Notes: generated by a model not told the origin, from the letters alone. Positions 19,542-53,862 are shown, counted from the stretch's first letter. The stretch: DNA of 64,000 nucleotides from Acidimicrobiia bacterium (GCA_022822905.1 JAJDYE010000037.1:38859-102858), one strand, 5' to 3'. Numbers and translations: made by a program.

Positions 19542-22538
19542 ATGCGAAATCCCCGAGATGTGTTCAGGCCGCGCCCGCCATCTCGCCCGCGCTTCTCGCG
19601 CCGGTCCAAGATCATCGCCGGTCTCATCTTGGTGGTATTGCTGGCCGCCATCCTGTCTCTGCGGGGTACGGCCCGCATGTGGACCGATTACTTGTGGTTC
19701 GACTCCCTGGGCCACGGTGACGTCTGGACCGAGATTCTGGTCTACAAGATCGTCTTGTCGGTCATCTTCATCGCCGCCTTCTTCCTCCTCATGTACTCCA
19801 ACCTGGCAATTGCCGACCGGTTGGCGCCCCAAACCCGCCCACCGGGTCCTGAAGAGGAGCTGATACGCCACTATCACGACGCGGTTGGCCATCGCCGGCG
19901 GCTGGTAAGCGTGGTGATTGCCATCTTGTTTGCCCTTATCGTGGGCGGCGGCACCGGGGGAGAGTGGCAGAAGGCCATGCTGTTCTTCAACAGCGTGGAT
20001 TTCGGCATCGATGATCCTCAGTTCGACCGTGACATCGGCTTCTACGTCTTCCAACTGCCGTTCATCCAGTTCCTGATCAGCTGGTTCTTCCGAGCCCTCA
20101 TCATCGTGGCCGTCATCACCGCCATCGCCCATTACGTGAACGGCGGCATCCGGGTGCAGACCACCGGGCAGCGGGTGACTCCTCAGGTGAAGGTCCACCT
20201 GTCGGTTCTTTTGGCCCTGATCGCCCTGGTTCGGGCCGTGGGCTACTACTACGACCGGTTTGGCCTCAACTTTTCCTCTCGGGGACCGGTGGACGGCGCC
20301 ACCTTCACCGACATCAACGCCCAGCTTCCTGCGCTCAATTTGCTGTTGCTGATATCAGTGCTGTCGGCAGTGCTGCTGGTCATCAACATCTGGCAGCGGG
20401 GCTGGGTGCTGCCGGTGACCGCGGTGGGCCTGTGGATGGTGGTGGCCATCGTCATGGGCGCGATCTACCCCGCCATCATCCAGCGATTCCAAGTCGAGCC
20501 GGAGGAGTCCCAGAAAGAGGCGCAGTACATCTATCGCAACATTGAGGCCACCCGCCACGCCCTCGGTTTCGACAAGAACCCCGGTGACGACGATACGGCA
20601 GACAACGTCACCACTATCTCGTTAGACGAGCTCGACACGGTGATAACCGTTGAGGAGCTGGCCGGCAACCCGAGCGTGCGCAACATTCGGCTGTTGGACC
20701 CCGACATCGTCCCCAACGCCTTCCAGGTGGAGCAGTCGGAGCGCACCTTCTATACTTTCGGCGGCGAGGTCGACGTGGACCGCTACGAGATCGACGGGGA
20801 GATTACCGAGGTGGTGATCGGCGCCCGCCAGCTCAACGTGGCCGACGTGCCCCAGCAGTCGTGGGAGGGTCGTCACATCCAGTACACCCACGGGTACGGC
20901 GTGGCAGTGGCCCCGGTGAACTCGGTTACCACCCAGGGCTCCCCCGACTTCGCGGTGGGCGACGTGCCGGTGATGGCCAGCGACGACTTCGAGTTGACCC
21001 AGCCGCAGCTCTACATCGGCGAGGGACTTACCGGTTACGCCATCGTCGGGGCCTCGATTGCCGAGGTGGACTACACCGAGGCCAACGAGACGGTTCCGTT
21101 CGAGTACGACGGCGAGGCCGGGGTGGGCATTGGCAGCTTCTTCCGCCAGGCGGCGTTCGCCCTGCGCTTTGGTGACATCAATCCGCTGATATCCGGTTTC
21201 GTGGAAAGCGATTCCCGGATCATCTTCAACCGGGACCTGCGCCTCCGAGTGCAGAACCTGGCCCCGTTCTTGGAGTTGGACGCTGATCCCTATCCCGTGA
21301 TTTCCGATGGCCGAGTGGTGTACGTCGTGGACGCCTACACCACCAGCGACCGGTATCCCTACGGCCAGGTGCCCGATGTGAGCGACCTGGCGAATGGCAG
21401 TGGCCTGCACAAGAAATTCAACTACGTCCGCAACTCGGTGAAGGTGGTGGTGGACGCGTACGACGGCACCACCACGTTCTATGTGATCGACCCCGGTGAT
21501 CCCATCATCCAGGCGTGGCGGAAGATCTTCCCCGGACTGTTCCAGGACTTCGACCGGATGCCGGCCGACCTGAAGGGCCACCTGCGCTATCCCGAGGACT
21601 TGTTCCGGGTGCAGACCTCCATGTGGGCCCGCTACTTCATCGACCCTGAAGAGGCGGAGACCTTCTATGCCAACTCGGTGACCTGGGCGGTGGCCCAGGA
21701 TCCGGGCACCCGTATCACCGCTCGAACGTTCTTGGATGAGGTGACCGAGGCCATCGCCGCCGAGGAGACGGCCACCGCCGCGGCTACCCGTCAGCTCGAG
21801 CGGAGAATCCGTCCGTTCTACCAGCTTCTCCAGCTTCCGGAAGAGGACGATGTGGACTTCGTGATCTTCCGGACGTTCGTTCCGGTGTCGGGGTCGGGCG
21901 ACGATGAGGATGAGCGCAAGGAGCTCACCGCGTTCATTGCGGCCAAGAGCGACATCGACGAGTACGGGGAACTGGTGGTGTACACCGTGCCGGGGACCAG
22001 CATCCCCGGCCCGAGCATCGTGGATGCCAAGATCCAGGCCGACACCCAGATTGCCGACGCCTTCACCCAGCTCAACCAGCAGGGGTCATCAGTGCTTCAA
22101 GGCAACCTTTTGATGATCCCGGTGGGCAACTCCCTGCTGTTCGTGCGTCCCGTGTATGTGCAGGCCACCGGCGACACCGAACTGCCCCAGGTGAAGCAGG
22201 TGATCGCCGGTATCGGCAACGACGACGATTTCGTGCTTACCATTCGGCCGACGTTGGAGGAAGCGCTGAATGCCCTGGCCGACCCCGGCAGCCCGACGGT
22301 GGTGCCCGCCGAGCCCACAGTTCTCAGCGGAGACGATGGCGATGCCCAGCCCGAGCCGTCTGTCCCCGCCGACCCCTCGATTTCCGATGAGGCGCCCATC
22401 GACGCAGACACTCGTCAGGCGCTGAGCGAGCTCATCTCCGAGCTGCGCACCACCCAAGACTCCCTCGACGAGGACCGCCGCCGTCTCGACGGCCTCATCG
22501 AAGAACTGGAGTCGCTGCTGGAATCCGCTGGCGGCTAG
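19542..22538 (+). CDS. UPF0182 family membrane protein
   Basis: 998 aa. The N-terminus ...MWTDYLWFDSLGHGDVWTEIL is followed by about 7 TM segments and a large extracytoplasmic domain, which is the UPF0182 architecture. Confidence 0.9.
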   Translation: MRNPRDVFRPRPPSRPRFSRRSKIIAGLILVVLLAAILSLRGTARMWTDYLWFDSLGHGDVWTEILVYKIVLSVIFIAAFFLLMYSNLAIADRLAPQTRPPGPEEELIRHYHDAVGHRRRLVSVVIAILFALIVGGGTGGEWQKAMLFFNSVDFGIDDPQFDRDIGFYVFQLPFIQFLISWFFRALIIVAVITAIAHYVNGGIRVQTTGQRVTPQVKVHLSVLLALIALVRAVGYYYDRFGLNFSSRGPVDGATFTDINAQLPALNLLLLISVLSAVLLVINIWQRGWVLPVTAVGLWMVVAIVMGAIYPAIIQRFQVEPEESQKEAQYIYRNIEATRHALGFDKNPGDDDTADNVTTISLDELDTVITVEELAGNPSVRNIRLLDPDIVPNAFQVEQSERTFYTFGGEVDVDRYEIDGEITEVVIGARQLNVADVPQQSWEGRHIQYTHGYGVAVAPVNSVTTQGSPDFAVGDVPVMASDDFELTQPQLYIGEGLTGYAIVGASIAEVDYTEANETVPFEYDGEAGVGIGSFFRQAAFALRFGDINPLISGFVESDSRIIFNRDLRLRVQNLAPFLELDADPYPVISDGRVVYVVDAYTTSDRYPYGQVPDVSDLANGSGLHKKFNYVRNSVKVVVDAYDGTTTFYVIDPGDPIIQAWRKIFPGLFQDFDRMPADLKGHLRYPEDLFRVQTSMWARYFIDPEEAETFYANSVTWAVAQDPGTRITARTFLDEVTEAIAAEETATAAATRQLERRIRPFYQLLQLPEEDDVDFVIFRTFVPVSGSGDDEDERKELTAFIAAKSDIDEYGELVVYTVPGTSIPGPSIVDAKIQADTQIADAFTQLNQQGSSVLQGNLLMIPVGNSLLFVRPVYVQATGDTELPQVKQVIAGIGNDDDFVLTIRPTLEEALNALADPGSPTVVPAEPTVLSGDDGDAQPEPSVPADPSISDEAPIDADTRQALSELISELRTTQDSLDEDRRRLDGLIEELESLLESAGG

Positions 22539-22585
22539 CCGGGGGTCTGTCGGACTGATTCACTCTGGGTTTTGCGCAGGCTCTG

Positions 22586-22670
22586 GTGTCTGGTGGGGAA
22601 CCTGCTTAAAAGGGGGAACAGCGGGCAACAGCCGCCGAACAGCCACGCTCAACTCAGGTGGCGAAAGGGA
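22586..22670. repeat. partial, diverged third copy (E3) of the 242-nt spacer element (module I only)
   Basis: ctggtggggaacctgc...gaacagcgggcaacagccgccgaacagcc aligns by eye to 23586-23640 and 26467-26521. It lies just after the stop of small TM gene A. Confidence 0.7.
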
Positions 22671-22712
22671 TCAACAGCAATGTTCCCCGGCCCAACCGGG
22701 TATCGGGGATGG

Positions 22713-22985
22713 CTAGGAGTTGCCGCGGCGCAGGCGGGCACCAATTCTGTTCCACACCAGTGCTGAGCCAGCCACTCCCAAAACAGCCATTGGCAACACG
22801 AAGAGGAAAATCCACACCAGATGGCCCACCCATCCAGGCACCCCCAACAAATCCGCAATCCAAGGAATGCCGTCATAGAAAAGGCCCACGCTCATTACGG
22901 CACCGCAGAGGCTGGCACCAAGAGCAGTAGGACCAACTGGTGGTGTACCGTTGGCGCGGTGTGGTGGGGGGTTGTGAATGGTCAT
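22713..22985 (-). CDS. small 2-TM protein, paralog A (N-terminal MTIHNPPPH)
   Basis: Paralogous to B, C and D (..WIADLLGVPGWVGHLVWIFLFVL..ARLRRGNS). The second ATG was chosen because only it is in frame in all paralogs. Confidence 0.6.
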   Translation of the reverse strand: MTIHNPPPHRANGTPPVGPTALGASLCGAVMSVGLFYDGIPWIADLLGVPGWVGHLVWIFLFVLPMAVLGVAGSALVWNRIGARLRRGNS

Positions 22986-23002
22986 GCCCCCCACCATACA
23001 CC
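22958..23002 (-). promoter_or_regulatory. conserved start-region hairpin or palindrome (copy A)
   Basis: ggtgtggtgggggg (22958-22971) and ccccccaccatacacc (22987-23002) are inverted repeats. The start codon lies in the ~15-nt loop. Confidence 0.7.
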
Positions 23003-23028
23003 TTCGGCCCCTAGGTGCCTAGGGGCGC

Positions 23029-23357
23029 TCAGTGTTCCTCCCATTCGGCGGGGTCGCGGTTGGCCCACGCCAACCACCAGTCCACCAACGCCTCGATGCG
23101 GGCCTGGAGCCAGCGGGCCAGTTCCAGTTGGACTCGGTCTCCTCCATCAGGTCGAGCAGGCCGGCCAGCGCCCCGCCCATAGACATCAAAGCGGGCTCCA
23201 ACAGCACCAGGGCCAGCAGGTAGCCGCCGACCGCCTCGGTATCGACCAACTCCAAGTCGAGGTCGTCCTTGCGCTCCCTCAACGCCTCCAGAGCGCCGGA
23301 GACCAAGCCCAGCACCTCGACCCAGGCGCGCTCGCCCGCATCCAAACGCCGTGCCAT
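23029..23357 (-). pseudogene. small all-helical protein, apparently frameshifted
   Basis: MARRLDAGERAWVEVLGLVSGALEALRERKDD...LLDLMEETE continues sensibly only in another frame (VQLELARWLQARIEALVDWWLAWANRDPAEWEEH*). The shift lies near 23140-23150. Confidence 0.55.
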
Positions 23358-23442
23358 ACCGAAAACCTCCATCGGTCGGTCGCTGACATTCCTGACCGGC
23401 CATTCTGGCCGATCCGTCGCGACCCCCGATGGAGTTCACCCA

Positions 23443-23684
23443 CCCTTCGGGAAGGTCGAGCTTTCGAGCTACCAAAGGCCGCGGCCAGACCCGAAGGGGA
23501 ACCAAGCAATACAGCTCGAACCTCACAACTTGTCTGGCCTGGCGGGGATTGTGTACATCCACGTCCACGCAGCCTTTGGTAGCTGGCGGGAACCTGCAGC
23601 AACAAGAGAACAGCGGGCAAGTCCGCCGAACAGTCAGGGAAGATCGGCGGCGACTCAGCCGGAGGGTGGAAGGGCTACGAACCC
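23443..23684. repeat. 242-nt spacer element, copy E1 (possible structured RNA or cis-regulatory leader)
   Basis: Differs at 6 of 242 positions from 26324..26565. Nested perfect inverted repeats: gctaccaaaggc 23468-79 / gcctttggtagc 23572-83, and ggccagac 23483-90 / gtctggcc 23532-39. Confidence 0.9.
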
Positions 23685-23965
23685 CGGTGGTACAGGCGGG
23701 CCTTGACTCGGCTCCACCTGATTATGAACCCAACGATCAGCAACAGCACGAAGAGAAGCCACACCAAAGGGAGCACTCCTTGAGGTGTCCCGGACCAATC
23801 CGCAATCCAGGAACCGGCCGACCCCGCAAGAACATAGGAGATGAACAAGACGTTGGCCCCACTAAAAACCGCAACGACCAGCAGCACTTTTGTTGAGTTC
23901 TTGTCGGCTTTGGCGCGCAGGGCGGTATTGTCGGGGGGGTGTGGTGGGGGGTTTTGGTACTTCAT
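23675..23965 (-). CDS. small 2-TM protein, paralog B (N-terminal MKYQNPPPH)
   Basis: ..SWIADWSGTPQGVLPLVWLLFVLLLIVGF..ARLYHRGS. Paralogous to A, C and D and has the same start-region hairpin. Confidence 0.6.
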   Translation of the reverse strand: MKYQNPPPHPPDNTALRAKADKNSTKVLLVVAVFSGANVLFISYVLAGSAGSWIADWSGTPQGVLPLVWLLFVLLLIVGFIIRWSRVKARLYHRGS

Positions 23966-23982
23966 GCCCCCCACCATACACC
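23938..23982 (-). promoter_or_regulatory. conserved start-region hairpin or palindrome (copy B)
   Basis: ggtgtggtgggggg (23938-51) / ccccccaccatacacc (23967-82). Confidence 0.7.
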
Positions 23983-24168
23983 TTGAAACGGGCCGGGGCC
24001 CTGCCGCTGAGAGCCGATCTGGGCGGCGTTGAGCCCCTGGACCCCCGGGGAGAAGGAAAGTGCGGGCCGGACCCCAGCGGCCCCACAAGCGCCCCAGCGG
24101 GGCCGCCACAGCGGCCCTGAGCGGGCCTCGGCGGGTTTAGCGGTCTCGGGTTTTGCGGGGGTGCGGTT

Positions 24169-26313
24169 CTAGCGGCAGCGCACCGGCTTGTCGTCGCCTA
24201 CTTTTTTGTTTCCGGCGATCTTGGCCTGCATTCCGATTTGGTACCAACCGGCGTTCGGCACGTCGAACGTCGTCGAGGTGCCCGCGACTGCTTTTTGGAG
24301 TCCGCGGTGGCCGCGGTTTTTTGTCTCGTTTGCCCAGATGTCGGGTTTCAGGGTTTCGGGGGTCTTGCTCCAAGAAACCGATATGACCCAGCCCGAGCCC
24401 GACGACTGGCACGAAACTGAGTCGAACGCTAAAGAGGGCTTCGGCTTGGTGGGGGTGGCGGTGCCGGAAACCCAATCAGAGAACCCCTCGGCGTTGAACG
24501 CCGCCACCCGCACGTCATAGGCCGACCCCCCCGAAAGCCCGCTGATCGTGTACGAGGTCGCCAAGTCCGAGCCATGCTCCAAATCCTCGAACTGGTCCGC
24601 AGCCTCGGACTCAGCCCAACTCTGAGCCCCCGACATCCACTGCACCCGATACCCGAAACCAGCCCCAGGGGTTGTTGCAGATGCGGTCCAAGAAACCGCG
24701 ATCTCCCCCACCCCAGCACTCGCAGACAAACCAGAAACAGAACCAGGAACTGACTGGCTTGAATCGTCGGAATCGGAATCGCTATTGAGGTATTTATCCA
24801 CAAGCGGGCAGCCATATTCGAGCACATAGTGAGTAGTAAGACCGACTCCAAAAGCAATACCAATTCCTACTGCAAGTGGTGGCGCGGTTACTCCCAAAGC
24901 AGCCAATACCGTCGTCCCGCTGTTAGCTAGCAACGCACCGCCAACAGCAGCTATCCCATTGCTTGACACTGCCCTTGTGTGGCTGTTGGCACATGCCAAT
25001 TTCAGTGCCTCTCCCGCTAAATTGAAGAGAGTCCAAAACTGGGCGAGGGGCAGTCCACCTATGAACTGCAAAGCAGCACGCTCTAATGCGTGTTTTGCAG
25101 GGCCGGGGAGTTTGTCGTATTGGTCTATGATGATCTTCCCGCCCTCAATGACGTAATCAACGCCTTTGATAGCGATCTTCCCGCCCTCTCTCACTAAATG
25201 CGTCACACCGTCAACAACGATTTGATAAAGGTTGATCGTTGTGCCTGTATCTTCTACAGCCTTGTAGCAGTCATGGGAGCCGTCCTTTTCCCATTTGCCG
25301 AGGTTCGCTGAGGCTGTTTTACCGCTTTTGTAGTATTCGTTTAGCTGTTCGTGCGTCATCAGCTCGGCAGTTGCCGAGGTGTATACGAAATAGATGATCG
25401 GCAGCGGCGGTGTGTAGCTGTGGCTTGCCGGGCAGGGGTGGTCTGCATGGCAGAAGGTCTCCCCCCTGCGGGTATGGAGGTGCTGGCCGTCGGGAACATT
25501 GCCAGGTGTGCAATTGCCGGTGTTGGGCCTGGTGTCGCAGCCGAGAACCGATACATCCCCGTGACTATCGCGAACGTGGCCGTAGACCGTTACCCTCTCG
25601 TCTTCGTACTTACCGGGAGCGCATTTCGCATGGTCGGCGTGGCAGGTGTTCCCGTGGGGATGCTCGCCCGGCTTGCAACCGTTGCCGCCCGGTTTGGGGG
25701 TCGGGGCCGGAGTGGGGGGCGGATCAACCCTGGGGGTCGGCGGGGGATCAGGGTCAGCCGTGGGCTCGGGCGTGGTGGTGGGCTTCGCCTTGGGCGGGCA
25801 GGTGGCGTCGTGGTCGATCCAGGTTCCGTTGCACTGTTTGAGCGTGTAGTGGCACGCCCCCGTCGAGCCGTGGCGGTGGGATAGGAAGCTGCACGGCTTC
25901 GGGGTGGGTGTGGGCTTGGGGTGGACTAGGAAGATGCTGTGGCAGCCGCCCCAGCCGGCGTGCTTGTGGCTGCCGCCGGGACACTCCGGCTTCGGCGTCG
26001 GCGCAGGTGTGGGCTTGGGGTGGACTAGGAAGATGCTGTGGCAGCCGCCCCAGCCGGTGTGCTTGTGGCTGCCGCCGGGACACTCCGGCTTCGGCGTCGG
26101 CGCGGGCGTGGGGGCCGGGGTGGGCTTGGGGTGGGTGTGGGTGTAGTTGTAGGCGTAACACCCAAAGTCGCCGGTGGGCTTGCATTCGACTTGGTGGGCT
26201 TCGGCGGTGGGCGTGTTGTCGGGGGCTGCGAGCACCAGCCCGGCGGCCAGCAACAGCGCCGGGACCAGCACCGCCAGCACACGCCAGACACCCCGCTTGT
26301 TGGATGCGGCCAT
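24169..26313 (-). CDS. secreted multidomain protein: Cys/His-rich repeats, Pro/Thr linkers, unknown central domain with Gly-rich hydrophobic hairpin, FN3 domain, C-terminal beta domain
   Basis: Signal peptide MAASNKRGVWRVLAVLVPALLLAAGLVLAA. Two 33-aa units KPECPGGSHKH(T/A)GWGGCHSIFLVHPKPTPAPTP. FN3-like segment PGSVSGLSASAGVGEIAVSWTA...YRVQW...YTISGLSGGSAYDVRVAAFNAEGFSDW. Confidence 0.8.
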   Translation of the reverse strand: MAASNKRGVWRVLAVLVPALLLAAGLVLAAPDNTPTAEAHQVECKPTGDFGCYAYNYTHTHPKPTPAPTPAPTPKPECPGGSHKHTGWGGCHSIFLVHPKPTPAPTPKPECPGGSHKHAGWGGCHSIFLVHPKPTPTPKPCSFLSHRHGSTGACHYTLKQCNGTWIDHDATCPPKAKPTTTPEPTADPDPPPTPRVDPPPTPAPTPKPGGNGCKPGEHPHGNTCHADHAKCAPGKYEDERVTVYGHVRDSHGDVSVLGCDTRPNTGNCTPGNVPDGQHLHTRRGETFCHADHPCPASHSYTPPLPIIYFVYTSATAELMTHEQLNEYYKSGKTASANLGKWEKDGSHDCYKAVEDTGTTINLYQIVVDGVTHLVREGGKIAIKGVDYVIEGGKIIIDQYDKLPGPAKHALERAALQFIGGLPLAQFWTLFNLAGEALKLACANSHTRAVSSNGIAAVGGALLANSGTTVLAALGVTAPPLAVGIGIAFGVGLTTHYVLEYGCPLVDKYLNSDSDSDDSSQSVPGSVSGLSASAGVGEIAVSWTASATTPGAGFGYRVQWMSGAQSWAESEAADQFEDLEHGSDLATSYTISGLSGGSAYDVRVAAFNAEGFSDWVSGTATPTKPKPSLAFDSVSCQSSGSGWVISVSWSKTPETLKPDIWANETKNRGHRGLQKAVAGTSTTFDVPNAGWYQIGMQAKIAGNKKVGDDKPVRCR
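25912..26109 (-). repeat. 99-bp tandem repeat x2 inside the 714-aa gene (encodes the 33-aa Cys/His unit)
   Basis: Units 25912-26010 and 26011-26109 differ at 3 positions on direct reading. Confidence 0.95.
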
Positions 26314-26323
26314 CTTGGTGGCT

Positions 26324-26565
26324 CCCTTCGGGAAGGTCGAGCTTTCGAGCTACCAAAGGCCGCGGCCAGACCCGAAGGGGAACCAAGCAATACCGCTCGA
26401 GCCTCACAACTTGTCTGGCCTGGCGGGGATTGTGTACGTCCATGTCCACGCAGCCTTTGGTAGCTGGCGGGAACCTGCTGCAACAACAGAACAGCGGGCA
26501 AGTCCGCCGAACAGTCAGGGAAGATCGGCGGCGACTCAGCCGGAGGGTGGAAGGGCTACGAACCC
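26324..26565. repeat. 242-nt spacer element, copy E2, ending 10 nt upstream of the ATG of the 714-aa gene
   Basis: Same length as E1, with 6 substitutions and no indels. Carries a relic ...RREGS* stop context like the C-termini of paralogs A and B. Confidence 0.9.
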
Positions 26566-26606
26566 TCGCGGCGCTAGCGTGTGTTGGAAGGAGTCAGGCT
26601 TGGCCG

Positions 26607-26849
26607 CTAAGCATCAGGGCAGCTCCGGCGGGCTTTATATCTCTTCTCAACCACAGAAACACCGGTCACCACCAGCACCAGCACGAAGAAACACCACACC
26701 AGAACACTCACCCCTAGAGGCATCCCCGACCAACCTTCGATCCAGGAGCCGACCAGCCCAAAGCCCAACCAAAAGGCGATGCTCCCAACAACGGCACCAA
26801 TACCACCCATCAGCCTCGCTGAGCGGCGAGCCGCTGAGGGATTTGTCAT
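26607..26849 (-). CDS. small 2-TM protein, paralog C
   Basis: ..GSWIEGWSGMPLGVSVLVWCFFVLVLVVTG.. aligns with paralog B. The start is uncertain (ATG 26849 or TTG 26891). A different 7-bp hairpin, gctcttg/caagagc, sits just upstream of the ATG. Confidence 0.5.
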   Translation of the reverse strand: MTNPSAARRSARLMGGIGAVVGSIAFWLGFGLVGSWIEGWSGMPLGVSVLVWCFFVLVLVVTGVSVVEKRYKARRSCPDA

Positions 26850-26916
26850 AGCGCTCTTGTCGGTTGCAAGAGCGACCGCGGGGCTGGCCAAGTAGTCCGG
26901 CTAGGGGTGGAGCGCC

Positions 26917-27228
26917 TCACAAGCGTCTTCGGGCGTAGTGGCGGATCGCTCTTACCGCTAACCATATTGCACAGCAAATTCCTAGTCCGCCTAAAACCCA
27001 CCACATCACGGCTAGGCCGCGCATCACTTCAGGCCCGTCTCCTAGATTCAGGATATGGGGATCGACGAATCTGCTGATGACGTAAAACCAGATTGCCACA
27101 AGACCCCACGTCAGCCAGCTTGGCAAAGCCGACTTCGATAACAGTTTGGACCCTGTAGCTCCGGGTTTTTCTGTGGCACCAGAGTCGGTATTGTCGTGGG
27201 GGTGTGGTGGGGGGTTGTGTTCGTCCAT
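26917..27228 (-). CDS. small membrane protein, paralog D (N-terminal MDEHNPPPH)
   Basis: Shares the N-terminal HNPPPH..DNT motif and start hairpin with A and B. Has two hydrophobic segments. Confidence 0.6.
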   Translation of the reverse strand: MDEHNPPPHPHDNTDSGATEKPGATGSKLLSKSALPSWLTWGLVAIWFYVISRFVDPHILNLGDGPEVMRGLAVMWWVLGGLGICCAIWLAVRAIRHYARRRL

Positions 27229-27246
27229 AGCCCCCCACCATACACC
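27201..27246 (-). promoter_or_regulatory. conserved start-region hairpin or palindrome (copy D)
   Basis: ggtgtggtgggggg (27201-14) / ccccccaccatacacc (27231-46). Confidence 0.7.
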
Positions 27247-28077
27247 TCGGTTCGGGCCAGGGCCTCCACGTCGCTCCTAGAGCCCGCTGGGGCCGGTTAG
27301 GGCCTCCCTAGTCGATTGAGTCCAGGGGGGGTGCCTGAGGTTGGGGTCAAACCCCGTAACTCGCCGCTGAGAGGCCGAGAATGGGGGGATTTGGGGTCGA
27401 TCTGGGGCGGCGAGCCCTCAGCGGCCCGTTGGCCGGCGAGGCCCTGGGCGAGTGTGCGGGCCGGTGGCGGGGGGTCAGCGCACCGGGCATGCGGTCAAGT
27501 CAGCTCGGCCTGTTGTGGTCTCTGGCGTGGGGGGCTACCGAGTCGATGCGGCGGCGGACTTGGACCTTCTGCATTTCGGCATCAGCGGCGATAGCGCCTA
27601 TTCGGCCATGAGCCAGCAAATCTCCTCCTCCCACTTCGCGAGTAGGGAGCGCATCCCGGCTATGCGGTTCATTCTGTCGTGGAGCGCATCCAGTGGGTGT
27701 TCGTCATCCCACAAGCACGGACTCATACTCGGGCAGCATATAGTGGCCATTCTACGGGGTACGGCGGTATCCCTGTTCGATGGGGTCAGGCCGCTTTGCA
27801 GCGGCGGTGGCGATCGCGCCAGCGGCGGGCTATCACGTCGTCTGGCAAGCGGTGGGGCCGCTCGAACTCGATCACCTCGTGGGGGTACCACATGGCCGCG
27901 GCCCGCAAGCCCGGCGACTTGGCCCGCCCCCGGTCGCCGGGCGGGTAGAAGCGCGGGCCGCTCACCGCGGCCTTTCGGGCTGGGGCTTGCGGCGGTGCTC
28001 GGCGACGGCCTCGACGCGGGTGCCGTCGTCCAGCTCGAGCAAAGGCACAGCATTTCTTCGGGCGGCAAGCCGTTTCC

Positions 28078-29109
28078 ATGATTTGGGACTTCGCGGAGGC
28101 GAATCCGTTTTTCACTTCCACTGGAAGTTTGGAGACTGCCTTTTCCATTGTTGCCGATGTGCTCCAATCCCTGCCTTCTCTTGTTCACATCGCTGGAAGG
28201 GCAAGCGAACTAGATGCCACTGCGGCTGCTCGGAAGGTGGTCATGGTGTCGACGGATCCGCCGTATTACGACAATATCGGCTATGCGGATTTGTCGGATT
28301 TCTTCTATGTGTGGCTGCGACGCACGGTGGGTGGGGTGTTCCCGGATGTGTGCTCGACGCTTCTGGCGCCCAAGGCGCAGGAGTTGATCGCGGCGTCGTA
28401 CCGTCACGGCGGCGACAGGGATGCGGCCGAGGAGTTCTTCGAGGGCGACCTCCAGAAGGCCCACATCGCGCCGGTGGATGTGGCGCAGGCCGCCATCGGG
28501 CCGGGCATGGCGGTTTTCTCCCGGTACAGCCGGGTGATCGAGGCCGACGGCGCACAGGTGGGGGTGCGGGCCGCGCTGTCTGCCGTCAACCGGGTGCTCG
28601 ACGAGACCCTGGAGGAAACTGGGGCCGAGTTGGACTCCGACACCCGCTGGGCGCTCACCTGGCACGCCCAGCATGGCTTCGAGTCCGGCGACTACGGCTC
28701 AGCCGAGCAGCTCTCCAAATCCCGCAACACCTCAGTGGAGGGCCTCGTGTCGGCCGGCATTGTCGAGTCCCGGGCCGGCCGAGTCCGCCTCATACCCCGC
28801 CATGAGTTCGACGAGGACTGGTCTCCCGCCCAAGACGAGCGCCTCACCGTCTGGGAGATCACCAACCACCTCGCCCGCAAACTCGAAACCCGAGGCGAAC
28901 AAGCCGCCGCCCGACTCCTCGCCCAGGTCGGCGGACTCGCCGACGCGGCCCGACTCCTCGCCTACCGTCTCCACCACATTTGCGACCGCAACGGATGGGC
29001 CGCCGACGCCCTCGCCTACAACAGCCTCGCCGCCGCCTGGCCCGACCTCACCCAACAAGCCCACCAACCCCCCACCGAAGACCAGGCCAACCTCGCCCTA
29101 ATTGCCTGA
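28078..29109 (+). pseudogene. C-terminal fragment of a DPPY-motif DNA methyltransferase (resembles DUF1156-family methylases of anti-phage loci)
   Basis: VMVSTDPPYYDNIGYADLSDFFYVWLRR is motif IV of amino-methyltransferases. No AdoMet-binding motif I or N-terminal domain is found upstream in any frame. Confidence 0.55.
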
Positions 29110-29181
29110 TTCGGCGTGCAGCCCGTCTAGCGCCTCGAAATTGCCCGATGGCTGCGCGGCCCGCAGGGCTGGCTGAGGCGG

Positions 29182-29397
29182 TTAGCGGTTCAGCCACTCC
29201 TCCCGTGTGTAACCTGCTTGCTTGAGCAATCGAAGCAGGAACGGGCCGGCAATCTCACTGTCGTTGGGGATGACTTGTCTGTGGGTGCCCTTGATCATGT
29301 ACTCGTGATTGCCTCCTGACCGTGGTCCTATCCATCCGCGTTCGGTCAAGAACCTGATGAGTTCGCGGCGGGTGGTTGGAGGGACCCGCCTGCTCAT
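29182..29397 (-). CDS. hicA: type II toxin HicA-family mRNA interferase
   Basis: MSRRVPPTTRRELIRFLTERGW...GGNHEYMIKG..RQVIPNDSEIAGPFLLRLLKQAGYT matches the HicA/YcfA pattern. ATGA overlap with the upstream partner. Confidence 0.75.
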   Translation of the reverse strand: MSRRVPPTTRRELIRFLTERGWIGPRSGGNHEYMIKGTHRQVIPNDSEIAGPFLLRLLKQAGYTREEWLNR

Positions 29398-29666
29398 GTA
29401 GGCGCAGCGACAAGCCCGTTGTGAAACGTGGGTATCGGCTGCCCGATCTGCTGGCCGAGTTCGACCCATCCGTAGAGCACCTGTCGAAGTTTGCCGCGGG
29501 CCTCGTCGGGAGTGGAGCCAAAGGCGGATGCACCCTGGCACTCAGGGTTCTCGGCCCACCATCCCACGAGGACTCCATCATCATCTCGTACCTCTTCGGT
29601 GGACGCCCCCGCAAGGGCAGCATCCAACCAGCACTCAAGCGGAAGCTGGGCCGTGGGCTGTGACAT
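29394..29666 (-). CDS. hicB: type II antitoxin HicB-family
   Basis: 90 aa with ..GWWAENPECQGASAFGSTPDEARGKLRQVLYGWVEL..GQPIP, a HicB/UPF0150-like fold signature. Confidence 0.65.
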   Translation of the reverse strand: MSQPTAQLPLECWLDAALAGASTEEVRDDDGVLVGWWAENPECQGASAFGSTPDEARGKLRQVLYGWVELGQQIGQPIPTFHNGLVAAPT

Positions 29667-29737
29667 GCCTGCACTGTAACACCGACAATCGGCTTTCACC
29701 CCGACACGCACCGTCGCCGATCTCCCACAAGGCGGCT

Positions 29738-30193
29738 TGAGAATTCCCCCTTTTCGTGGAGACATGCTCTGCAAGGAGAGGAGCAATGTGAGGTTCCCCC
29801 TGTTGTCCGGTCATTTGGTTTGTGCGGCTTGTTCTAGTGGTTGTCGGTGGTGGTCCTCCCATTCTGTGGGGGTCAGGTAGTCGAGGGCAGAGTGGATTCC
29901 CCGGCTGTTGTAGCGGCCGGTCCAGGAGAAGATCTCCTGGCGAGCGTGGTCTCGGGTCGCGAACCGGGTCTGTGCGGAGGACTCTCGCTTCAGCGATGAG
30001 AAGAACGGCTCGACGACGCTGTTGTCCCAGAGGTTGCCGGCCCGCCCCGCGGATTGGCGCATCCGGTTGCGGGCCAGCGCCGAGGCGGAGTCCCTGGAGA
30101 GGTATCGCGGGCCGCGGTCGGAGTGGAATATCGCCTCGGTGGTGCGGAGACCTCTGGACGCGGCGGCTGTGTGCAGGACGTCGGCGACAGCCC
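29738..30193 (-). mobile_element. IS3-family insertion sequence, 3' remnant only (transposase C-terminal fragment plus terminal inverted repeat)
   Basis: Frame 29811..30191 reads ..EAIFHSDRGPRYLS...NLWDNSVVEPFFSSLKRE...YNSRGIHSALDYLTPTEWE (DDE/rve core tail). The terminal sequence TGAGAATTCCCCC...GGAGAC at 29738-29767 looks like an IS3-type IR. Confidence 0.75.
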
Positions 30194-30688
30194 GGTGCCC
30201 TTGTCGCCCTTCGGGTTGTCCACATCGCGGGTCTTCGGCGTGTACGTGTAGTAGTCGGGGTTGCCGTCGCCGTCGTTGTCCGGGCCGGGCGTGTTGCCGT
30301 ACACGCATGTGCTGGCCTGCCCGTCCGAGTCGGTGGCAGGCCAGTTCCCGTCGGCCGACGAGCGCGACTCCTCCACCGGCTCGGGAGTGCTGCCATCGGG
30401 GATTCCAGTGGCGTCTTTGCGGTCGTCGAGCTTTTCCTCCTCGCCGGGCCTGTTGCCGGGGTTGGTGGTCGTCGGGTCCGGGTTCTTGTTGTCCTTGTTG
30501 CTCGGCATCAACCTCAGGGACCAGGGCCGGCTGCCGCTGTCGGGTGCGAGCAGCGGATCGGGGCGGGGTTTGGCGTCGGCGTCTTCCTCCGTGTCCAGCT
30601 TTGACGGCAGCAGGTCGCCGCGCAGGATCAGCCCCGAGGTGAGCATCGCCATGGCGGCGAGCCGGGCGACGCGGCTTCTGGTCAGCAT
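30194..30688 (-). pseudogene. N-terminal fragment of a secreted protein (Asp-rich DNDGDGNPD calcium-binding-like motif), truncated by the IS3 remnant
   Basis: Signal peptide MLTRSRVARLAAMAMLTSGLIL. Protein-like sequence ends at ..NPKGDKGTG, exactly where transposase homology begins in another frame. Confidence 0.55.
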
Positions 30689-32740: not shown

Positions 32741-33676
32741 TCACTGGGTCACCAAGTAGCGGAAGACGCTTTCCAAGTCGTCGTCGAGCGGGCGCAATTC
32801 CAGCAGCGAGACGTTCCGGTCACGGGCGACAGGAGCTACCGCCCGGCGAAACGCGGCAGGGTCTGTGGTGTCCACCACCACAAGGTCGGTGTTCTCCAAG
32901 CGGCATCCCGAGATGACGCCCCGGTCCAGCAGGGCAATGGCCAGCTCTCGGGGCTGATCGGTGCGGATGCTGATCCGCAATGGCCGATCGTCCATTAGGT
33001 TGCGGATTTCGCGGAAGTCCCCCTCGGCGGCCAGCCGCCCCTGAGCCATCACCAGCACCCGGGAGCCGAATCGCTCCACCTCGTCGAGCACATGGCTGGA
33101 CACGATCACGCACTTGCCCTCCGACCCCAGCCGGTGGAAGAGCTCGATCATCTCCCGCCGCTGTCGGGGATCGAGCCCGGTGAGGGGCTCGTCGAGGGCA
33201 ATCACCAGGGGATCGTGGACAATGGCCTGGGCCAGCTTGATGCGCTGGCGCATCCCCTTTGAATAGGTGGAGAGCCGGCGGGTGTCGTCAGGATCGAGTT
33301 CAACGGTCTGAATGGCCTGGCGGGCGGCATCGCCAGGGCATTGGAGGTGATGCAGCTGGGCGGCCAGCTCTACGAACTCCCGGCCGCTCAGGTGATCGAG
33401 CAGCGACTCCTGCTGGGGGGCCATGCCGATGCGGCCCAGCACGGATACATCGGATCGGGGATCCTTGCCCAGCACGGTCACCGACCCATTTGAGGGCCTG
33501 GCCAAGCCGCACATCATCCGCAGCATGGTGGACTTCCCCGCTCCGTTGGGCCCCAGCAGGGCAGTTACCCCGGCGCCGATGCTGAAACTCACATCCGACA
33601 CCGCCACCAGGTCGCCGAACCACTTAGACGCACCAGCCGCCTGCACCATGGGCGGCGGTCCCGCTTGGGTGCTCAT
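32741..33676 (-). CDS. ABC transporter ATP-binding protein
   Basis: Walker A GPNGAGKST, signature YSKGMRQRIKLAQA and Walker B IALDEP. The ATG at 33676 forms an ATGA overlap with the upstream permease. Confidence 0.88.
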   Translation of the reverse strand: MSTQAGPPPMVQAAGASKWFGDLVAVSDVSFSIGAGVTALLGPNGAGKSTMLRMMCGLARPSNGSVTVLGKDPRSDVSVLGRIGMAPQQESLLDHLSGREFVELAAQLHHLQCPGDAARQAIQTVELDPDDTRRLSTYSKGMRQRIKLAQAIVHDPLVIALDEPLTGLDPRQRREMIELFHRLGSEGKCVIVSSHVLDEVERFGSRVLVMAQGRLAAEGDFREIRNLMDDRPLRISIRTDQPRELAIALLDRGVISGCRLENTDLVVVDTTDPAAFRRAVAPVARDRNVSLLELRPLDDDLESVFRYLVTQ

Positions 33677-34545
33677 CCGGTGACCTCGATTCGCTGGTAG
33701 CGCCAGCGGGCAAACCACCCGAACACGACGATGAGCCCGAGGAAAGTGAGAAGAATCGGCAGAGTCTCCACATTTCTGATGGGGGGTCCGTCGGGATTGA
33801 CCTCTCCGTAGATGCGGTAGACGGTCTCGATGGGTAGGGCGATCATGTTCAGCAATGCGAACGAGTCGCCCACCTCGGCGCCTTCGGCCAGTCCATCGCC
33901 TACTGCGGCGGATACCAGCAGGCTGACGAAGATGGCCACGCTGGCCAGTGTGCGGCGAGGGGAGAGACTGGAAATGGCCAGCGCCAGCGAGCCCCAGAAG
34001 GCAGCCATGGCCAGGCCTGAGGCCAGCACCCGGCCGAATTCGATCAACCAGTCGATAGCGCCGTCGGGGCCAATGCCTTCCAGAGTGAAGGCGATCAGCA
34101 TCAGCAGCGTCGGCCCGATCGTCATGACGCCCAGCACGGCGATCACGGCAACGAACTTGGAGGCCAGGTAGGTGTCCCGGTTCAAGGGAGAGGCCAGATA
34201 TAGCCCCAGCATGCCGCTGCCGCGGTCGGTGCAGAGAGCCTCGGGGGTCACAAAGGAGGTGAACAAGAACAACACGAAGGAGATGGGCACGTAGTACCCG
34301 GCCGGATCCCCTAGTTCGAAGTCGTTGCTAGCGGGAAGCAGGGCTGCAAGGCCGATGAACACGATGGCCGGCACGAAGGCAACCAGCAGGGCTATGGCTG
34401 GCATGACCTTCTGCCAGTTGGATCGCTTCAGGCCCAGCACCCGCTGCACGGTGTGATAGCTCAAGACCACCATGGCGCGCCCTGGCCCGTGGCGGGGACC
34501 GTCGTAGGCCAAGTAGCCCCGATCGTGGATGCGGGCCTCGGTCAT
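33673..34545 (-). CDS. ABC-2 type transporter permease
   Basis: MTEARIHDRGYLAYDGP... followed by six TM segments. The start was trimmed to the ATG at 34545 (ATGA overlap with the upstream ATPase). Confidence 0.7.
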   Translation of the reverse strand: MTEARIHDRGYLAYDGPRHGPGRAMVVLSYHTVQRVLGLKRSNWQKVMPAIALLVAFVPAIVFIGLAALLPASNDFELGDPAGYYVPISFVLFLFTSFVTPEALCTDRGSGMLGLYLASPLNRDTYLASKFVAVIAVLGVMTIGPTLLMLIAFTLEGIGPDGAIDWLIEFGRVLASGLAMAAFWGSLALAISSLSPRRTLASVAIFVSLLVSAAVGDGLAEGAEVGDSFALLNMIALPIETVYRIYGEVNPDGPPIRNVETLPILLTFLGLIVVFGWFARWRYQRIEVTG

Positions 34546-35447
34546 CGGGAGGCCTCGATAAACACGTCTTCCAGGGTGGTCCGGCGAGGCTCCAGACGGC
34601 GCAGGCCCAAGCCCAGATCGGCCACAAGGTCCCGAACCAGATCGCCGATCTCGTCGACACCAGTCACGGTGAGGATATGCCCGTCGATGGTTGCCTGCGC
34701 GCCTCGGGCCGCCAGTGCACTGGCCAGAGGCTGGGGATCGGAGTCCAACTCCACCTTCACCCCTGATGCGGCCGACCCGAGGCCGTCGAGGGCGCTGCTG
34801 TGGCCCACTACGCCGTTGGCCAGGATGACAACCGAGTCGCACACCCGTTCCACTTCCTCCAGCAGGTGCGACGACAGCAGGATGTCGATGCCGAATTCGC
34901 TGCCCACTCGGCGGATGAGGGCCAGCATGTCGTCGCGCTGCACTGGATCGAGGCCGTCGGTGGGCTCGTCGAGCAGTAACAGGTCGGGGTCGTGGGCGAT
35001 GGCCTGAGCCATCTTCACCCGCTGGCGCTGCCCGGTAGACATGGTGCCGATGGGGCGGAACCGCTCTTCCCCTAGGCCCACCTGCCAGAGGGCGTCGCTG
35101 GCCCTCTCGGTGGCCGCCCGTCGGGGCAGCCCGTGGAGTTGGGCGATGTGGCGCACCAAGTCGGCAGCCTGCACGTCGTCAGGCAGATCGTGGTGCTCGG
35201 GGGCATAGCCCAGTCGGGCTCGCAGTTCAGGCCCGCTCTGGTCGGGGTCGACCCCCAGTACGTTGAGCGTGCCGCCCTGGCGGGGGCGCAGTCCCAAGAC
35301 CAGCCCCATGAACGTGCTCTTGCCCGAGCCGTTGGGTCCCAGCAGTCCGGTGATGCCCCGTCCGACATCGCAATCCAGGCCCTGGAGCACGTGGTTCGAC
35401 CCGTAGCTCTTTTGCACTCCTCGGGCGGAGATAACGATGTCGGACAC
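34542..35447 (-). CDS. ABC transporter ATP-binding protein
   Basis: Walker A GPNGSGKST, signature MSTGQRQRVKMAQA and Walker B LLLDEPTDGLD. GTG start at 35447. Confidence 0.88.
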   Translation of the reverse strand: MSDIVISARGVQKSYGSNHVLQGLDCDVGRGITGLLGPNGSGKSTFMGLVLGLRPRQGGTLNVLGVDPDQSGPELRARLGYAPEHHDLPDDVQAADLVRHIAQLHGLPRRAATERASDALWQVGLGEERFRPIGTMSTGQRQRVKMAQAIAHDPDLLLLDEPTDGLDPVQRDDMLALIRRVGSEFGIDILLSSHLLEEVERVCDSVVILANGVVGHSSALDGLGSAASGVKVELDSDPQPLASALAARGAQATIDGHILTVTGVDEIGDLVRDLVADLGLGLRRLEPRRTTLEDVFIEASR

Positions 35448-35458
35448 TGGGCGAAACC

Positions 35459-36487
35459 CTATCCCTGCTCTGACCCCATCAGGTCGTCGGGGGTGGGGAA
35501 GTGGCAGGCCACCGGGTGTCCGATGCCCAGATCTAGCAACTCCGGGTCGTACTCGGCACATATCGACTGCGCCTTCCAGCATCGCGTCCGAAAGCGGCAT
35601 CCCGAAGGGGGAGAGGCGGGGTTGGGCGCATCCCCTTCAAGCACGATGCGTCGCCGCCTCTTCTCGAGCTTGGGGTCGGGAATGGGTACAGCGGACAGCA
35701 AGGCCTGGGTGTAGGGATGGGCCGGGGTTTCGTACACTTCCGGTCCGGTACCCGTCTCCACGATCCGTCCCAGATACATCACTGCCACCTGGTCGGAGAT
35801 GTGGCGGACCACCGACAGATCGTGGGCCACGAACAGGTAGGTGAGCCCCAGTTGGCGCTGGAGATCTTCCAGCAGGTTGAGCACGCCGGCCTGAATGCTC
35901 ACGTCGAGGGCTGACACCGGCTCGTCCAGGATGATCAGCTCGGGTTCGAGGGCGAGGGCTCGGGCGATTCCGATGCGCTGGCGCTGGCCGCCGGAGAACT
36001 CGTGAGGGTAGCGGTTGCCGTGCTCGGGGTTCAGGCCGACCAGCTCCAGTAGTTCGCCCACCCGGGCCTGGACGTCCTCGTCGGCGCGGTGGATTCGCAG
36101 GGGCTCGGAGATGATGGACGAGACCGTCATGCGGGGGTCGAGGGAGGCCATCGGGTCTTGGAAGACGATCTGCATGTTCTGGCGCAGGGCCTGAAGCTGG
36201 CGGCGGCTCAGGTCGGCCAGCTCTTGGCCTTTGACTCGCACTGAGCCCGAGGTGGGCTGGATGAGGCGGAGGATGCAGCGTGCGATAGTGGATTTGCCGG
36301 ACCCTGATTCCCCTACCAGGCCTAGGGTCTCGCCTTGATCGATGTGCAGGGACACGCCGCTTACGGCTTGGACTGTGCCCACGGTGCGGCGGACTACGCC
36401 TTTTGACTTGATGGGGAAGGTTTTGACTAGGTCGGTGACTTCGACCAGCGGCGTTGCTCCATCCGGCAGGTCGGCGGGGCTAGACAT
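35459..36487 (-). CDS. oligopeptide/dipeptide ABC transporter ATP-binding protein (DppF/OppF-type)
   Basis: [23 protein letters not shown] and the C-terminal oligopeptide-ABC extension ..[10 protein letters not shown]. Confidence 0.9.
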
Positions 36488-37493
36488 CTTCGGCCTCGCC
36501 GTATTGGTCTTCGGCGTGGTGGCAGGCGGTGAGCTGGGTGCCTATAGGGCGTAGCTCGGGGGTCTCTTGAGAGCAGATATCGGTGGCTCGGGGGCAGCGG
36601 GGGGCGAAGGCGCATCCGGGGGGTGGGGCCAGCATGGATGGCGGGGTTCCGTCGATGGGCATCAGGCGGGTGCCCTTGGGGGCGTCGAGGCGGGGTATGG
36701 CGTCGAGAAGGCCGGCGGTGTAGGGGTGGGCGGGGCGTTCGAACACGTTGTCGGCCATTCCGGTCTCGGCTATCCGACCGGCGTACATCACCAGCAGCCG
36801 GTGGGCGGTGCGGGCTACCACGCCGAGGTCGTGCGTGATCACCACCAGGGCTGAGCCAGCGGCCTCCCGGGCCCGCTCCAGAACATCCAGCACCTGGGCC
36901 TGAATGGTGACGTCGAGGGCGGTGGTTGGCTCGTCGGCGATGAGAAGATCGGGGTCGTTGGCGATGGCCATGGCGATCATGGCCCGCTGGCGCATCCCGC
37001 CCGACAGCTCGTGGGGGTAGGAGTCCACCCGCTGGGGGGCATTGGGGATGCCCACCAAGTCGAGCAGCTCGACTGCCTTAGACCGGGCGATGGCCGTCTT
37101 CGTCCGCTGGTGGACGCGGACCCCTTCGGCAATCTGGGCTCCGACGGTCATCACCGGGTTCAGCGAGGTCATCGGATCTTGGAACACCATGGAGATGGCC
37201 GATCCCCGCAGTTTTTCGAGTTCCTTGTCGGCCATGGCCGTCACGTCTTGGCCCCGATAGGAAATAGTGCCGCTTACTCGAGCGGTGCTCGGCAGCAGGC
37301 CCAGGGCGGCCATCACGCTGACCGATTTTCCCGAGCCGGATTCGCCGGCGATGGCCAGCACCTCGCCCTCGTAGATGTCCCAGCTCACCCCCCGCACCGC
37401 CTGCACGTCGCCGTCGGGGGTGGGGAACACCACCTCCAAGTCCTGCACCGACAGCACCGGGACCTCGGCTCGGGGGCTGGCCGGGCTGGTCAT
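36480..37493 (-). CDS. oligopeptide/dipeptide ABC transporter ATP-binding protein (DppD/OppD-type)
   Basis: [24 protein letters not shown], ..[10 protein letters not shown]. The ATG at 37493 forms an ATGA overlap with the permease stop. The longer ORF extension is Arg/Gly-rich read-through. Confidence 0.9.
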
Positions 37494-53813: not shown

Positions 53814-53862
53814 TCAAGAGTGCTGCTGCGATGACCGGCGATAATCCGCCGGTGCTGCCCTG

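Follow-up and report, generated by a model that had tools for sequence, protein, structure and literature searches.

A predicted Shine-Dalgarno-masking leader family of sponge-associated Acidimicrobiia, with a near-identical orphan copy

Results

A repeated intergenic element that joins a gene tail to a structured leader

Two intergenic elements of 242 nt, E1 and E2, lie in a 64,000-nt stretch of DNA from an Acidimicrobiia bacterium (GCA_022822905.1, JAJDYE010000037.1:38859-102858; the whole stretch is called the window here, and positions are counted from its first letter). Each copy of the element (E) is a composite, made of the 3' tail of a small gene (positions 1-95, minus-strand numbering) and a structured leader (~96-242). 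Taken together, the comparisons below indicate that this lineage-specific leader probably masks the Shine-Dalgarno sequence of the gene that follows it, with E2 as the working copy and E1 as a recent orphan duplicate.

Direct reading and alignment bear out the pair as first described, with equal length, six substitutions (plus-strand positions 71, 78, 115, 120, 156 and 164, four of the six having A in E1) and no indels. When 22.5-27.5 kb was compared with the whole window, E1 and E2 were 97.5% identical over 242 nt, the next-ranked local repeats reaching only 74-87% over 47-82 nt, and similarity collapsed to background a few bases beyond either border. The elements are indeed more conserved than the flanking genes, as the small proteins encoded upstream of E1 and E2 are ~32% identical and the downstream genes are unrelated.

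The borders are another matter, since E does not end just before a ribosome-binding site, as had been proposed: E2 ends inside the Shine-Dalgarno sequence of the following gene, which encodes a protein of 714 amino acids (aa) (GAAGGG/AG with the border at the slash, then 8 nt, then AUG). Identity of E1 to E2 stops after GAAGGG, and E1 lacks AGCCACCAAGAUG and the cognate start codon; it is followed by a spacer of about 70-85 nt before the GGAGG of the next gene, and the 90 nt after E1 have no codon-position bias in the profile of G+C at third codon positions (GC3). Intact leader copies run on as GGGAGCCACCAAGAUG, which is present in E2 and absent from E1. As other intact leaders continue and E1 does not, the 3' border of E1 marks where the copy was broken, 14 nt ahead of the start codon, and not where a functional unit ends. 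The parts of the two elements are as follows.

E1, 23443-23684, minus strand: last 7 nt and stop codon of a small gene, 3' tail, truncated leader.
E2, 26324-26565, minus strand: begins at the relic of a small-gene C-terminus (..EGS, then stop).
E2 leader, 26311-26478, minus strand: intact; C-rich flank, P1, junction hairpin, P2, P3, pseudoknot, P4, Shine-Dalgarno, AUG.
E2 Shine-Dalgarno GGGAG, 26322-26326, and AUG of the 714-aa gene, 26311-26313.
E1 leader, 23443-23597, minus strand: orphan copy, all helices intact.
P1 5' arm GCUACCAAAGGCUGC, E2 26450-26464 and E1 23569-23583, minus strand: 15-bp helix.
P1 3' arm GCGGCCUUUGGUAGC, E2 26349-26363 and E1 23468-23482, minus strand.
P2 5' arm GGCCAGAC, E2 26413-26420 and E1 23532-23539, minus strand: 8-bp helix.
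P2 3' arm GUCUGGCC, E2 26364-26371 and E1 23483-23490, minus strand.
Pseudoknot strand UCCCCUUCGGG, E2 26371-26381 and E1 23490-23500, minus strand: 3' side of the P2 loop.
P4 hairpin UCGA-AAGC-UCGA, E2 26337-26348 and E1 23456-23467, minus strand: between P1 and the pseudoknot partner.
Pseudoknot partner CCCGAAGGGAG, E2 26322-26332, minus strand: contains the Shine-Dalgarno; in E1 (23443-23451) only CCCGAAGGG.

The leader belongs to a clade-restricted family

Relatives were collected in several ways. A pattern from the hairpin common to E1, E2 and a partial relative, E3 (see below), used for a genome scan, returned two genomes, a metagenome-assembled genome (MAG) of Acidimicrobiia (L001) and the complete chromosome of a Candidatus Poriferisocius sp. 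(L002), each with one E-type copy ahead of a 714-aa gene homologue. L002 shares synteny with the window and carries an intact IS3 orfA/orfB exactly at the position of the window's second cassette. A set of 26 loci was gathered with the conserved 17-nt module at the 5' end of the small genes as a DNA pattern, whose matches outside Acidimicrobiia stay at the level of chance for a 17-mer in 596 Gb. BLASTN of E against these 26 loci recovered the further copies that the preliminary description had looked for. Unexpectedly, what these loci share with E is confined to its last ~100 nt, which many of them carry at 76-88% identity. Placed side by side, the leader copies have an outer helix whose sequence changes from copy to copy yet always pairs, an inner helix of 8 bp, and a near-invariant core (UUGCUUGGYYCCCUUCGGGUCUGRCCGCGG), with a Shine-Dalgarno and start codon about 35-45 nt beyond it.

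Across 185,579 species-representative genomes the core pattern occurs in 12 stretches only, from Acidimicrobiia MAGs or Poriferisocius plus one unclassified sponge bin, and in the metagenome collection of the Joint Genome Institute (JGI) it occurs in a single contig. With a covariance model built from a MAFFT alignment of the leader copies we obtained 20 solid matches (44-155 bits, 16 sources) and one more in the metagenome contig, which brings the solid relatives to 21, from about 9 genomes of sponge-associated Acidimicrobiia; the sources of these matches are without exception Acidimicrobiia MAGs or Ca. Poriferisocius. Within the window the model matches E1 (23437-23606, 136.2 bits) and E2 (26318-26487, 141.8 bits) only. 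Copy number is low, with two full E copies in the 64 kb, 1-2 E-type copies per genome, and six leader-family members among the loci taken from the Poriferisocius chromosome of 3.7 Mb. DNA of this region is also present in sponge metagenomes; a scan of the JGI metagenomes for the exact 12-bp outer helix gave no match, the helix sequence being private to this copy.

A search of Rfam 15 with the whole window at the gathering threshold found a single tRNA only, positions 22400-27400 at E<=10 gave only chance miRNA-type matches at the small-gene starts, and eight related loci at E<=1 had no match on the leader motif, so that no Rfam 15 family accounts for the element. The leader is thus an uncatalogued RNA family restricted to one clade of uncultured sponge-symbiont Acidimicrobiia.

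Some relatives carry two close leader copies, back to back with no gene between in L021 (3802-4142), and paired in L019 (4396-4559 and 5339-5528) and L006 (4148-4338 and 5809-5993). Several copies (L019a, L021a, L006a and L032) have lost the pseudoknot partner or the downstream gene, so that turnover in the family is quick.

Two stacked helices covary

RNAalifold on the MAFFT alignment (16 copies) stacks the 15-bp P1 directly on the 8-bp P2. The 8-bp inner helix first noticed in E1 and E2 therefore stands, and the outer one, initially given as 12 bp, extends to 15 bp (GCUACCAAAGGCUGC/GCGGCCUUUGGUAGC). Counted on an alignment not fitted to structure, P1 and P2 are paired in 97.3% of alignment cells, compared to 84% in column shuffles and 35-40% with slid partners, and 58 cells are doubly changed vs. 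17.9 in shuffles (0/500 shuffles as high). Both sides have changed in 10 of the 15 P1 pairs across relatives; P2 is paired in 99% of cells, with one pair going from C-G to U-A in six sequences and arms reading GGCCAAGC/GCUUGGCC in L019b. P1 and P2 form 23 continuous bp, the 3' strand running from one helix to the other with every base paired in almost every copy, and the length of this stem is kept as its sequence drifts.

The remaining parts of the fold come from inspection and single-sequence folds. The P1-P2 junction varies from 13 to 32 nt, tolerates insertions and bears a side hairpin, and a hairpin P3 (YYGRGC/GCUUGG) occupies the P2 loop. At the place of P4, all 14 copies that were folded have a hairpin, each with a different stem sequence.

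A loop strand pairs with the Shine-Dalgarno

The strand UCCCCUUCGGG is the exact complement of CCCGAAGGGAG, giving an 11-bp pairing between the P2 loop and the segment that contains the Shine-Dalgarno. When both segments were extracted from the relatives by sequence rules blind to complementarity, the 11 pairs were formed in 97.9% of cells and four of them were compensated, with 0/500 shuffles as high. Variant strands match variant partners: CCCAUCGGG with CCCGAUGGG in L020a and L026, CCCUUCGAG with CUCGAAGGG in L028, CCCCUCGGG with CCCGAGGGG in L031, and CCCUUCACG with CGUGAAGGG in L019b, where a local hairpin is impossible on either strand. Because the L019b strands cannot form local hairpins, the long-range pairing is what selection keeps. 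Duplex energies range from -17.5 to -23.8 kcal/mol (-18.4 kcal/mol for E2). Covariation, the absence of which was to have counted against a structured element, was thus found both in P1/P2 and, through the compensated pairs, in the pseudoknot.

Comparative signals point to the gene-sense RNA

P1 and P2 contain about 24 G·U cells vs. 2 A·C cells, and since G·U pairs are mismatches on the opposite strand, this excess implies that the gene-sense RNA folds. All 21 leader-family members are co-oriented with the adjacent genes, the Shine-Dalgarno lies 5-8 nt from the AUG in intact copies, and the z-score of the E2 fold is -2.9 on the minus strand and -1.7 on the plus strand. These sequence signals point to the minus-strand RNA of E as the molecule likely to fold. 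A coding reading of E was set aside: a plus-strand frame is open through it, but the six E1/E2 differences comprise three synonymous and three non-synonymous changes in this frame, and open frames are common at 64.5% GC. Searches for RNA sequencing runs with the sequence returned none, and runs X7-X10, offered as RNA, behave like DNA assemblies, with contigs up to 150 kb.

Among the functions first proposed for E, a cis-regulatory leader is supported by the further copies, the covarying helices and the pseudoknot with the next gene's Shine-Dalgarno, and a processed small RNA found no support.

Intact leaders precede mosaic surface-protein genes

Intact leaders precede genes for proteins of 500-830 aa with a signal peptide, Pro/Thr linkers and Cys/His-rich repeats, as well as hydrophobic segments, acidic Ser/Asp linkers and, in several, FN3 domains. 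These proteins form a related set, each a mosaic of shared and unique modules, and the association of the leader is with such mosaic secreted proteins, not with one metabolic or transport function. The 714-aa protein has a Pfam fn3 match (5e-8).

The signal peptides end in A-x-A/H (cleavage at the slash) in L001, L002, L005, L019, L028, L029, L030, L031 and the window (26200-26313), with ends such as AEA/HQ, ANA/HE, AEA/HS, AQA/HE and ASA/HP; the mature proteins would hence begin with His, which is reminiscent of N-terminal-His metal sites. Within the 714-aa gene, a 99-nt tandem repeat (95% identical, 25894-26091) encodes a Cys/His-rich module (ECPGGSHKHxGWGGCHSIFLVHPKP...) present in two copies in the window and three in L002. 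The C-terminal part of this gene with its 3' flank (24040-24561) reaches 10-20x the depth of its surroundings in eight sponge- or host-associated runs, which means that this module exists in many copies or in many community members.

E1 as a probable recent duplicate in a recombining array

E1 and E2 differ from each other at 6 positions and from the L002 copy at 8 and 10, and are hence nearer to each other than to that copy. E-type copies break off at different points, at position 49 in L001, 159 in L027 and 242 in E1. Upstream of position 49, L001 has E3-type sequence; in L027 the E-type copy stops at 159 and is followed by an inverted E3-like piece, and the 117-aa gene that follows E1 in the window adjoins a B-type small gene. 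Strains in sponge metagenomes also differ in cassette content (joints 22717>23656, 22999>24140 and 23995>26553).

All this is explained most simply if one leader copy was recently duplicated, or spread by gene conversion, through recombination within the tandem array of small genes, leaders and large genes. The downstream part of the duplicate would then have been replaced, which would have left E1 as an orphan without its last 14 nt and its gene. Near-identity between unrelated flanks fits a recent duplicate whose flanks were replaced by recombination; E1 is best read in this way, although the preliminary description had set recent duplication aside. The near-identity of E1 and E2 is therefore a matter of recent history, and the preserved fold is subject to longer-term constraint in the family.

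Of the earlier idea of a recombination module that moves cargo genes, the mosaic locus and the cassette differences hold up, but the varying breakpoints, the single orientation and the lack of terminal repeats and target duplications give no sign of a dedicated site. The ends of E (GGGUUCGUAGCCC... and ...CCUUCCCGAAGGG) do not form an inverted repeat, and the flanks (CCGG/UGGG and GCGA/AGCC) have no target-site duplication. Repeats of the miniature inverted-repeat transposable element (MITE), repetitive extragenic palindromic (REP) or Correia type were rejected on their ends, few copies and single orientation. Integron attC sites are imperfect palindromes with conserved R''/R' core sites (RYYYAAC ... 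GTTRRRY) at both ends. The P1 arms here vary freely and end in ...GGUAGC, ...CGUGAC or ...CUUUGGC without GTTRRRY, and the conserved part is the inner one, the reverse of attC. As for an integron integrase, the screen covered the surroundings of the array and showed IS3-type transposase fragments only. Template and variable repeats of a diversity-generating retroelement were also rejected, both copies being intergenic and L001 and L002 siding with E1 or E2 mixedly.

Compared with L002, the array and its upstream side (25894-28447) are 95.5-97.7% identical and the adjacent UPF0182 housekeeping gene (21081-22580) only 83.9%, which suggests that this island was recently exchanged between lineages.

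The upstream third of E and the partial relative E3

The 5' third of E contains a terminator-like hairpin, CGGCGG-ACUUGC-CCGCUG (E positions 57-74), found by pattern scan, with a 6-bp stem of which 5 pairs are G-C, followed by the U-rich UUCUCUUGUU.

Terminator-like hairpin, E2 26492-26509, E1 23611-23628 and an E3 version at about 22614-22636, minus strand (pattern scan).
E3, 22586-22670, minus strand: 3' tail of the last small gene, hairpin, degenerate leader start; cut where the UPF0182 gene ends.

This hairpin is common to E3 and L001. The region holds 7 terminator-like sites vs. 4.8 +/- 2.4 in shuffles, i.e., not above shuffles, and an upstream pairing, CCGCCGA/UCGGCGG, competes with the hairpin and is preferred in the minimum free energy (MFE) fold. 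An attenuator, one of the functions first suggested for E, is through this competition a weak possibility, and for the 5' third only. E3 is a genuine partial relative, as had been noticed, and is 76% identical to E over 71 nt that span the terminator-like hairpin and the leader start; the leader covariance model did not detect it.

Genes of the array

All genes around E1 and E2 are on the minus strand, in the order gene A, gene B, E2, 714-aa gene, small gene, E1, 117-aa gene, small gene, E3 and the end of the UPF0182 gene. This last gene, beyond E3, is convergent and matches Pfam at 6.7e-248. The small proteins are predicted to have two transmembrane segments (2-TM).

Small gene A, 27228-26917, minus strand.
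Gene B, 26607-26849, minus strand: small 2-TM gene upstream of E2, ending 42 nt before it.
714-aa gene, 24169-26313, minus strand: secreted mosaic protein, served by E2; signal peptide, Cys/His repeats, PT-rich linkers, FN3.
Small 2-TM gene (MKYQNPPPHPPDN...), 23675-23965, minus strand: stop codon inside the start of E1.
117-aa gene, 23019-23372, minus strand: downstream of E1, unrelated; frame switch near 23130-23140 (GC3 profile).
Small gene after the 117-aa gene, 22985-22713, minus strand.

A 136-aa open reading frame (ORF) from a GTG right after E1 was ruled out by GC3, the real frame being the 117-aa ORF. The 117-aa gene has no Pfam match, either as the raw or as the joined protein, and its homologue in L027 has the same two-frame layout; the frame switch reflects either a conserved or programmed frameshift or an old shared pseudogene.

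The gene 5' of the leader is nearly always a small 2-TM gene starting M-x-Y/H-x-N-P-P-P-H-P. Those of the window (23925-23990, 27190-27255 and 22948-23012, minus strand) have in common a 5' module, AAGGUGUAUGGUGGGGGG-(C/CU)AUG...AACCCCCCACCACACC, forming a 9-bp G/C hairpin with the start codon in its loop and the N-P-P-P-H codons as its 3' arm (-27 to -33 kcal/mol, z about -2.7). This module is 84-87% identical among paralogues whose proteins are ~32% identical, and is found again in Poriferisocius and related MAGs, where 2-4 such genes stand in tandem. Its role may be translational control, as a second device of this kind, or polyproline stalling. Gene B (region 26607-26917) lacks the usual NPPPHP start and the 5' module in both the window and L002, where it lies 25 nt after gene A; in L027 (713-1042) it is intact, with both. 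This contrast is a further sign of module fusion in the array.

A piece resembling the small-gene start, (A)UGGACGUACACA(A), occurs at different places in different leader copies: in the P1-P2 junction of E (23555-23568 and 26436-26449), in a P3 insertion in L005 (about 4200-4215), and after P1 of L019a in L019 (about 4533-4555). The degenerate small-gene start first noticed at the centre of E lies in a 16-nt P1-P2 junction insertion peculiar to E-type copies.

Beside the array (27600-30400; 5190-6460 in L002) are HicA-type and UPF0150 (HicB-like)-type genes and an IS3-family transposase fragment, and a 343-aa ORF with a DPPY motif and no Pfam match lies near. Elsewhere in the window, a 48-nt repeat occurs in four copies ~1-1.8 kb apart (33209-36998), which may be conserved motifs of paralogous genes, and a 32-nt tandem duplicate occupies 53820-53883.

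Discussion

A default-off leader and its rivals

From these observations we infer transcription of the leader, repression of the gene behind it, and a trigger. The leader would fold into a rigid 23-bp coaxial stem (15 bp of P1 and 8 bp of P2) with a small side hairpin, and the 3' side of the P2 loop, UCCCCUUCGGG, would pair with CCCGAAGGGAG, hiding the Shine-Dalgarno, which lies 5-8 nt ahead of the AUG. By default the large protein would then not be translated, or only at a strongly reduced level, until the pseudoknot is opened, which might be done by a protein or a ligand, by a physical cue, or by RNase III cleavage of the long stem. The 15-bp P1, an 11-bp pseudoknot that is GC-rich, and a junction of variable length suggest a device stiffer than a classical riboswitch.

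Several points weigh against this view of a masking leader. P3 and P4 were judged by eye and from single-sequence folds, MAFFT shifting their register between subfamilies. The family comes from a single narrow clade, so that conserved unpaired bases may reflect recent ancestry and not function. L019a, L021a, L006a, L032 and E1 are decayed or have no large gene after them, from which selection is not uniform. In the MFE fold the Shine-Dalgarno also finds a partner in the C-rich flank 5' of P1, which leaves the in-vivo masking partner unsettled. The transcribed strand and the RNA ends, as proposed here, rest on comparative signals throughout. Lastly, the high stability of the pseudoknot and of P1 makes it difficult to imagine a reversible switch.

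The stem might instead serve as an intercistronic processing or stability signal, in which RNase III would cut the 23-bp duplex and split the small-gene message from the large-gene message, either activating translation by removal of the masking strand or leaving a stem that shields the new 5' end from RNase J. A double-strand-specific nuclease such as RNase III, or a double-strand-binding protein, needs duplex length rather than sequence, about 20 bp or more for RNase III. The leader offers a continuous coaxial duplex of 23 bp that keeps its length under sequence drift, a constant position between two co-oriented genes, and a masking strand and Shine-Dalgarno on opposite sides of the putative cut. 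Such a signal leaves the conserved loop sequence beyond the pseudoknot unexplained, however, and the terminator-like hairpin upstream suggests that the two genes are not always co-transcribed; we consider it rather unlikely as the main role of the leader.

Alternatively, the three-way junction and P2 loop could be the aptamer of a riboswitch whose ligand stabilises or dissolves the masking pseudoknot. Covarying stems do alternate with sequence-conserved junction and loop segments (UUGCUUGG, CUGCGG and GUCUGRCCGCGG), the expression platform would be a pseudoknot over the Shine-Dalgarno, an arrangement shared by several established riboswitches, and, with no Rfam match, the class would be new; the Cys/His-rich downstream proteins, with His after signal-peptide cleavage, might hint at metal chemistry. 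Yet the perfect P1 and the pseudoknot are far stiffer than usual switching helices, the P1-P2 junction accepts insertions over its 13 to 32 nt, the controlled genes encode mosaic surface proteins and form no coherent metabolic or transport set, and the clade is too narrow to separate functional conservation from shared ancestry. A riboswitch thus seems improbable to us. We would give similarly little credence to a bolder version, in which the family is a new switch class, ligand-sensing or gated by RNase III or a protein, that silences hypervariable host-facing surface proteins until a host or environmental cue arrives, and whose portable leaders plug in new cassettes.

Least of all do we expect E to be a DNA-level element (MITE, REP or Correia-like, or an attC-like or vsp-like site) that shuffles cargo and has RNA structure only incidentally: the near-identical copies between unrelated flanks, the mosaic locus with its strain-specific joints, the modules re-associated in L001 and L027 and the IS3 copies nearby would fit, but E has neither terminal inverted repeats nor target-site duplications at its borders, only 1-2 E-type copies per genome with varying breakpoints, and 21 members that all share gene orientation and a fixed distance to the start codon, and it is only in the sense RNA that the Shine-Dalgarno pairing and the surplus of G·U over A·C can be understood.

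Significance

Sponge-associated Acidimicrobiia are enriched in eukaryotic-like proteins, FN3 being one of the domain classes counted, and these proteins are thought to mediate host recognition (PMC11706023). The leader appears to gate translation of one such protein family of sponge symbionts. In these uncultured bacteria it offers a testable handle on the regulation of host-interaction proteins, in the form of a 170-nt RNA with a well-defined pseudoknot and clear-cut compensatory mutants. It also accounts for non-coding DNA that is far more conserved than the neighbouring genes, through RNA-level constraint combined with recent local duplication.

Comparison with known systems

Pseudoknots covering the Shine-Dalgarno are found in the preQ1-II, SAM-II/SAM-V and NAD+-II riboswitch classes. 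Like the leader, these have a structured 5' leader with covarying stems and a loop strand that pairs with the ribosome-binding site; the leader differs in its far larger size, its 23-bp rigid stem, the surface-protein genes it precedes and the lack of an Rfam match. Protein-controlled operators with a pseudoknot over the start region include the E. coli rpsO/S15 leader and that of phage T4 gene 32, in which, similarly, the regulated gene has its Shine-Dalgarno or AUG region paired with a hairpin loop. The leader, by contrast, sits between small membrane-protein and secreted-protein genes, and a binding protein is here only putative.

RNase III hairpins (phage T7 early region, rpsO-pnp leader) resemble it as long, near-perfect intercistronic duplexes whose length is kept, but usually have no loop that pairs with the next gene's ribosome site, and cleavage of the leader is only putative. 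A superficial resemblance links it to ERIC/IRU, Neisseria Correia and pneumococcal BOX/RUP elements, which are likewise repeated intergenic units of 150-250 nt with a long stem, and are co-transcribed with their neighbours, as the leader would be; unlike these, the leader has no terminal inverted repeats or target duplication, and has one orientation, few copies and a covarying stem. Finally, the Mycoplasma bovis vsp and M. pulmonis vsa loci also place near-identical non-coding modules before variable mosaic surface-protein genes in a recombining array. The leader copies, however, are direct repeats instead of inverted ones, neither a recombinase nor a fixed site of recombination was seen, and RNA pairing explains their conservation.

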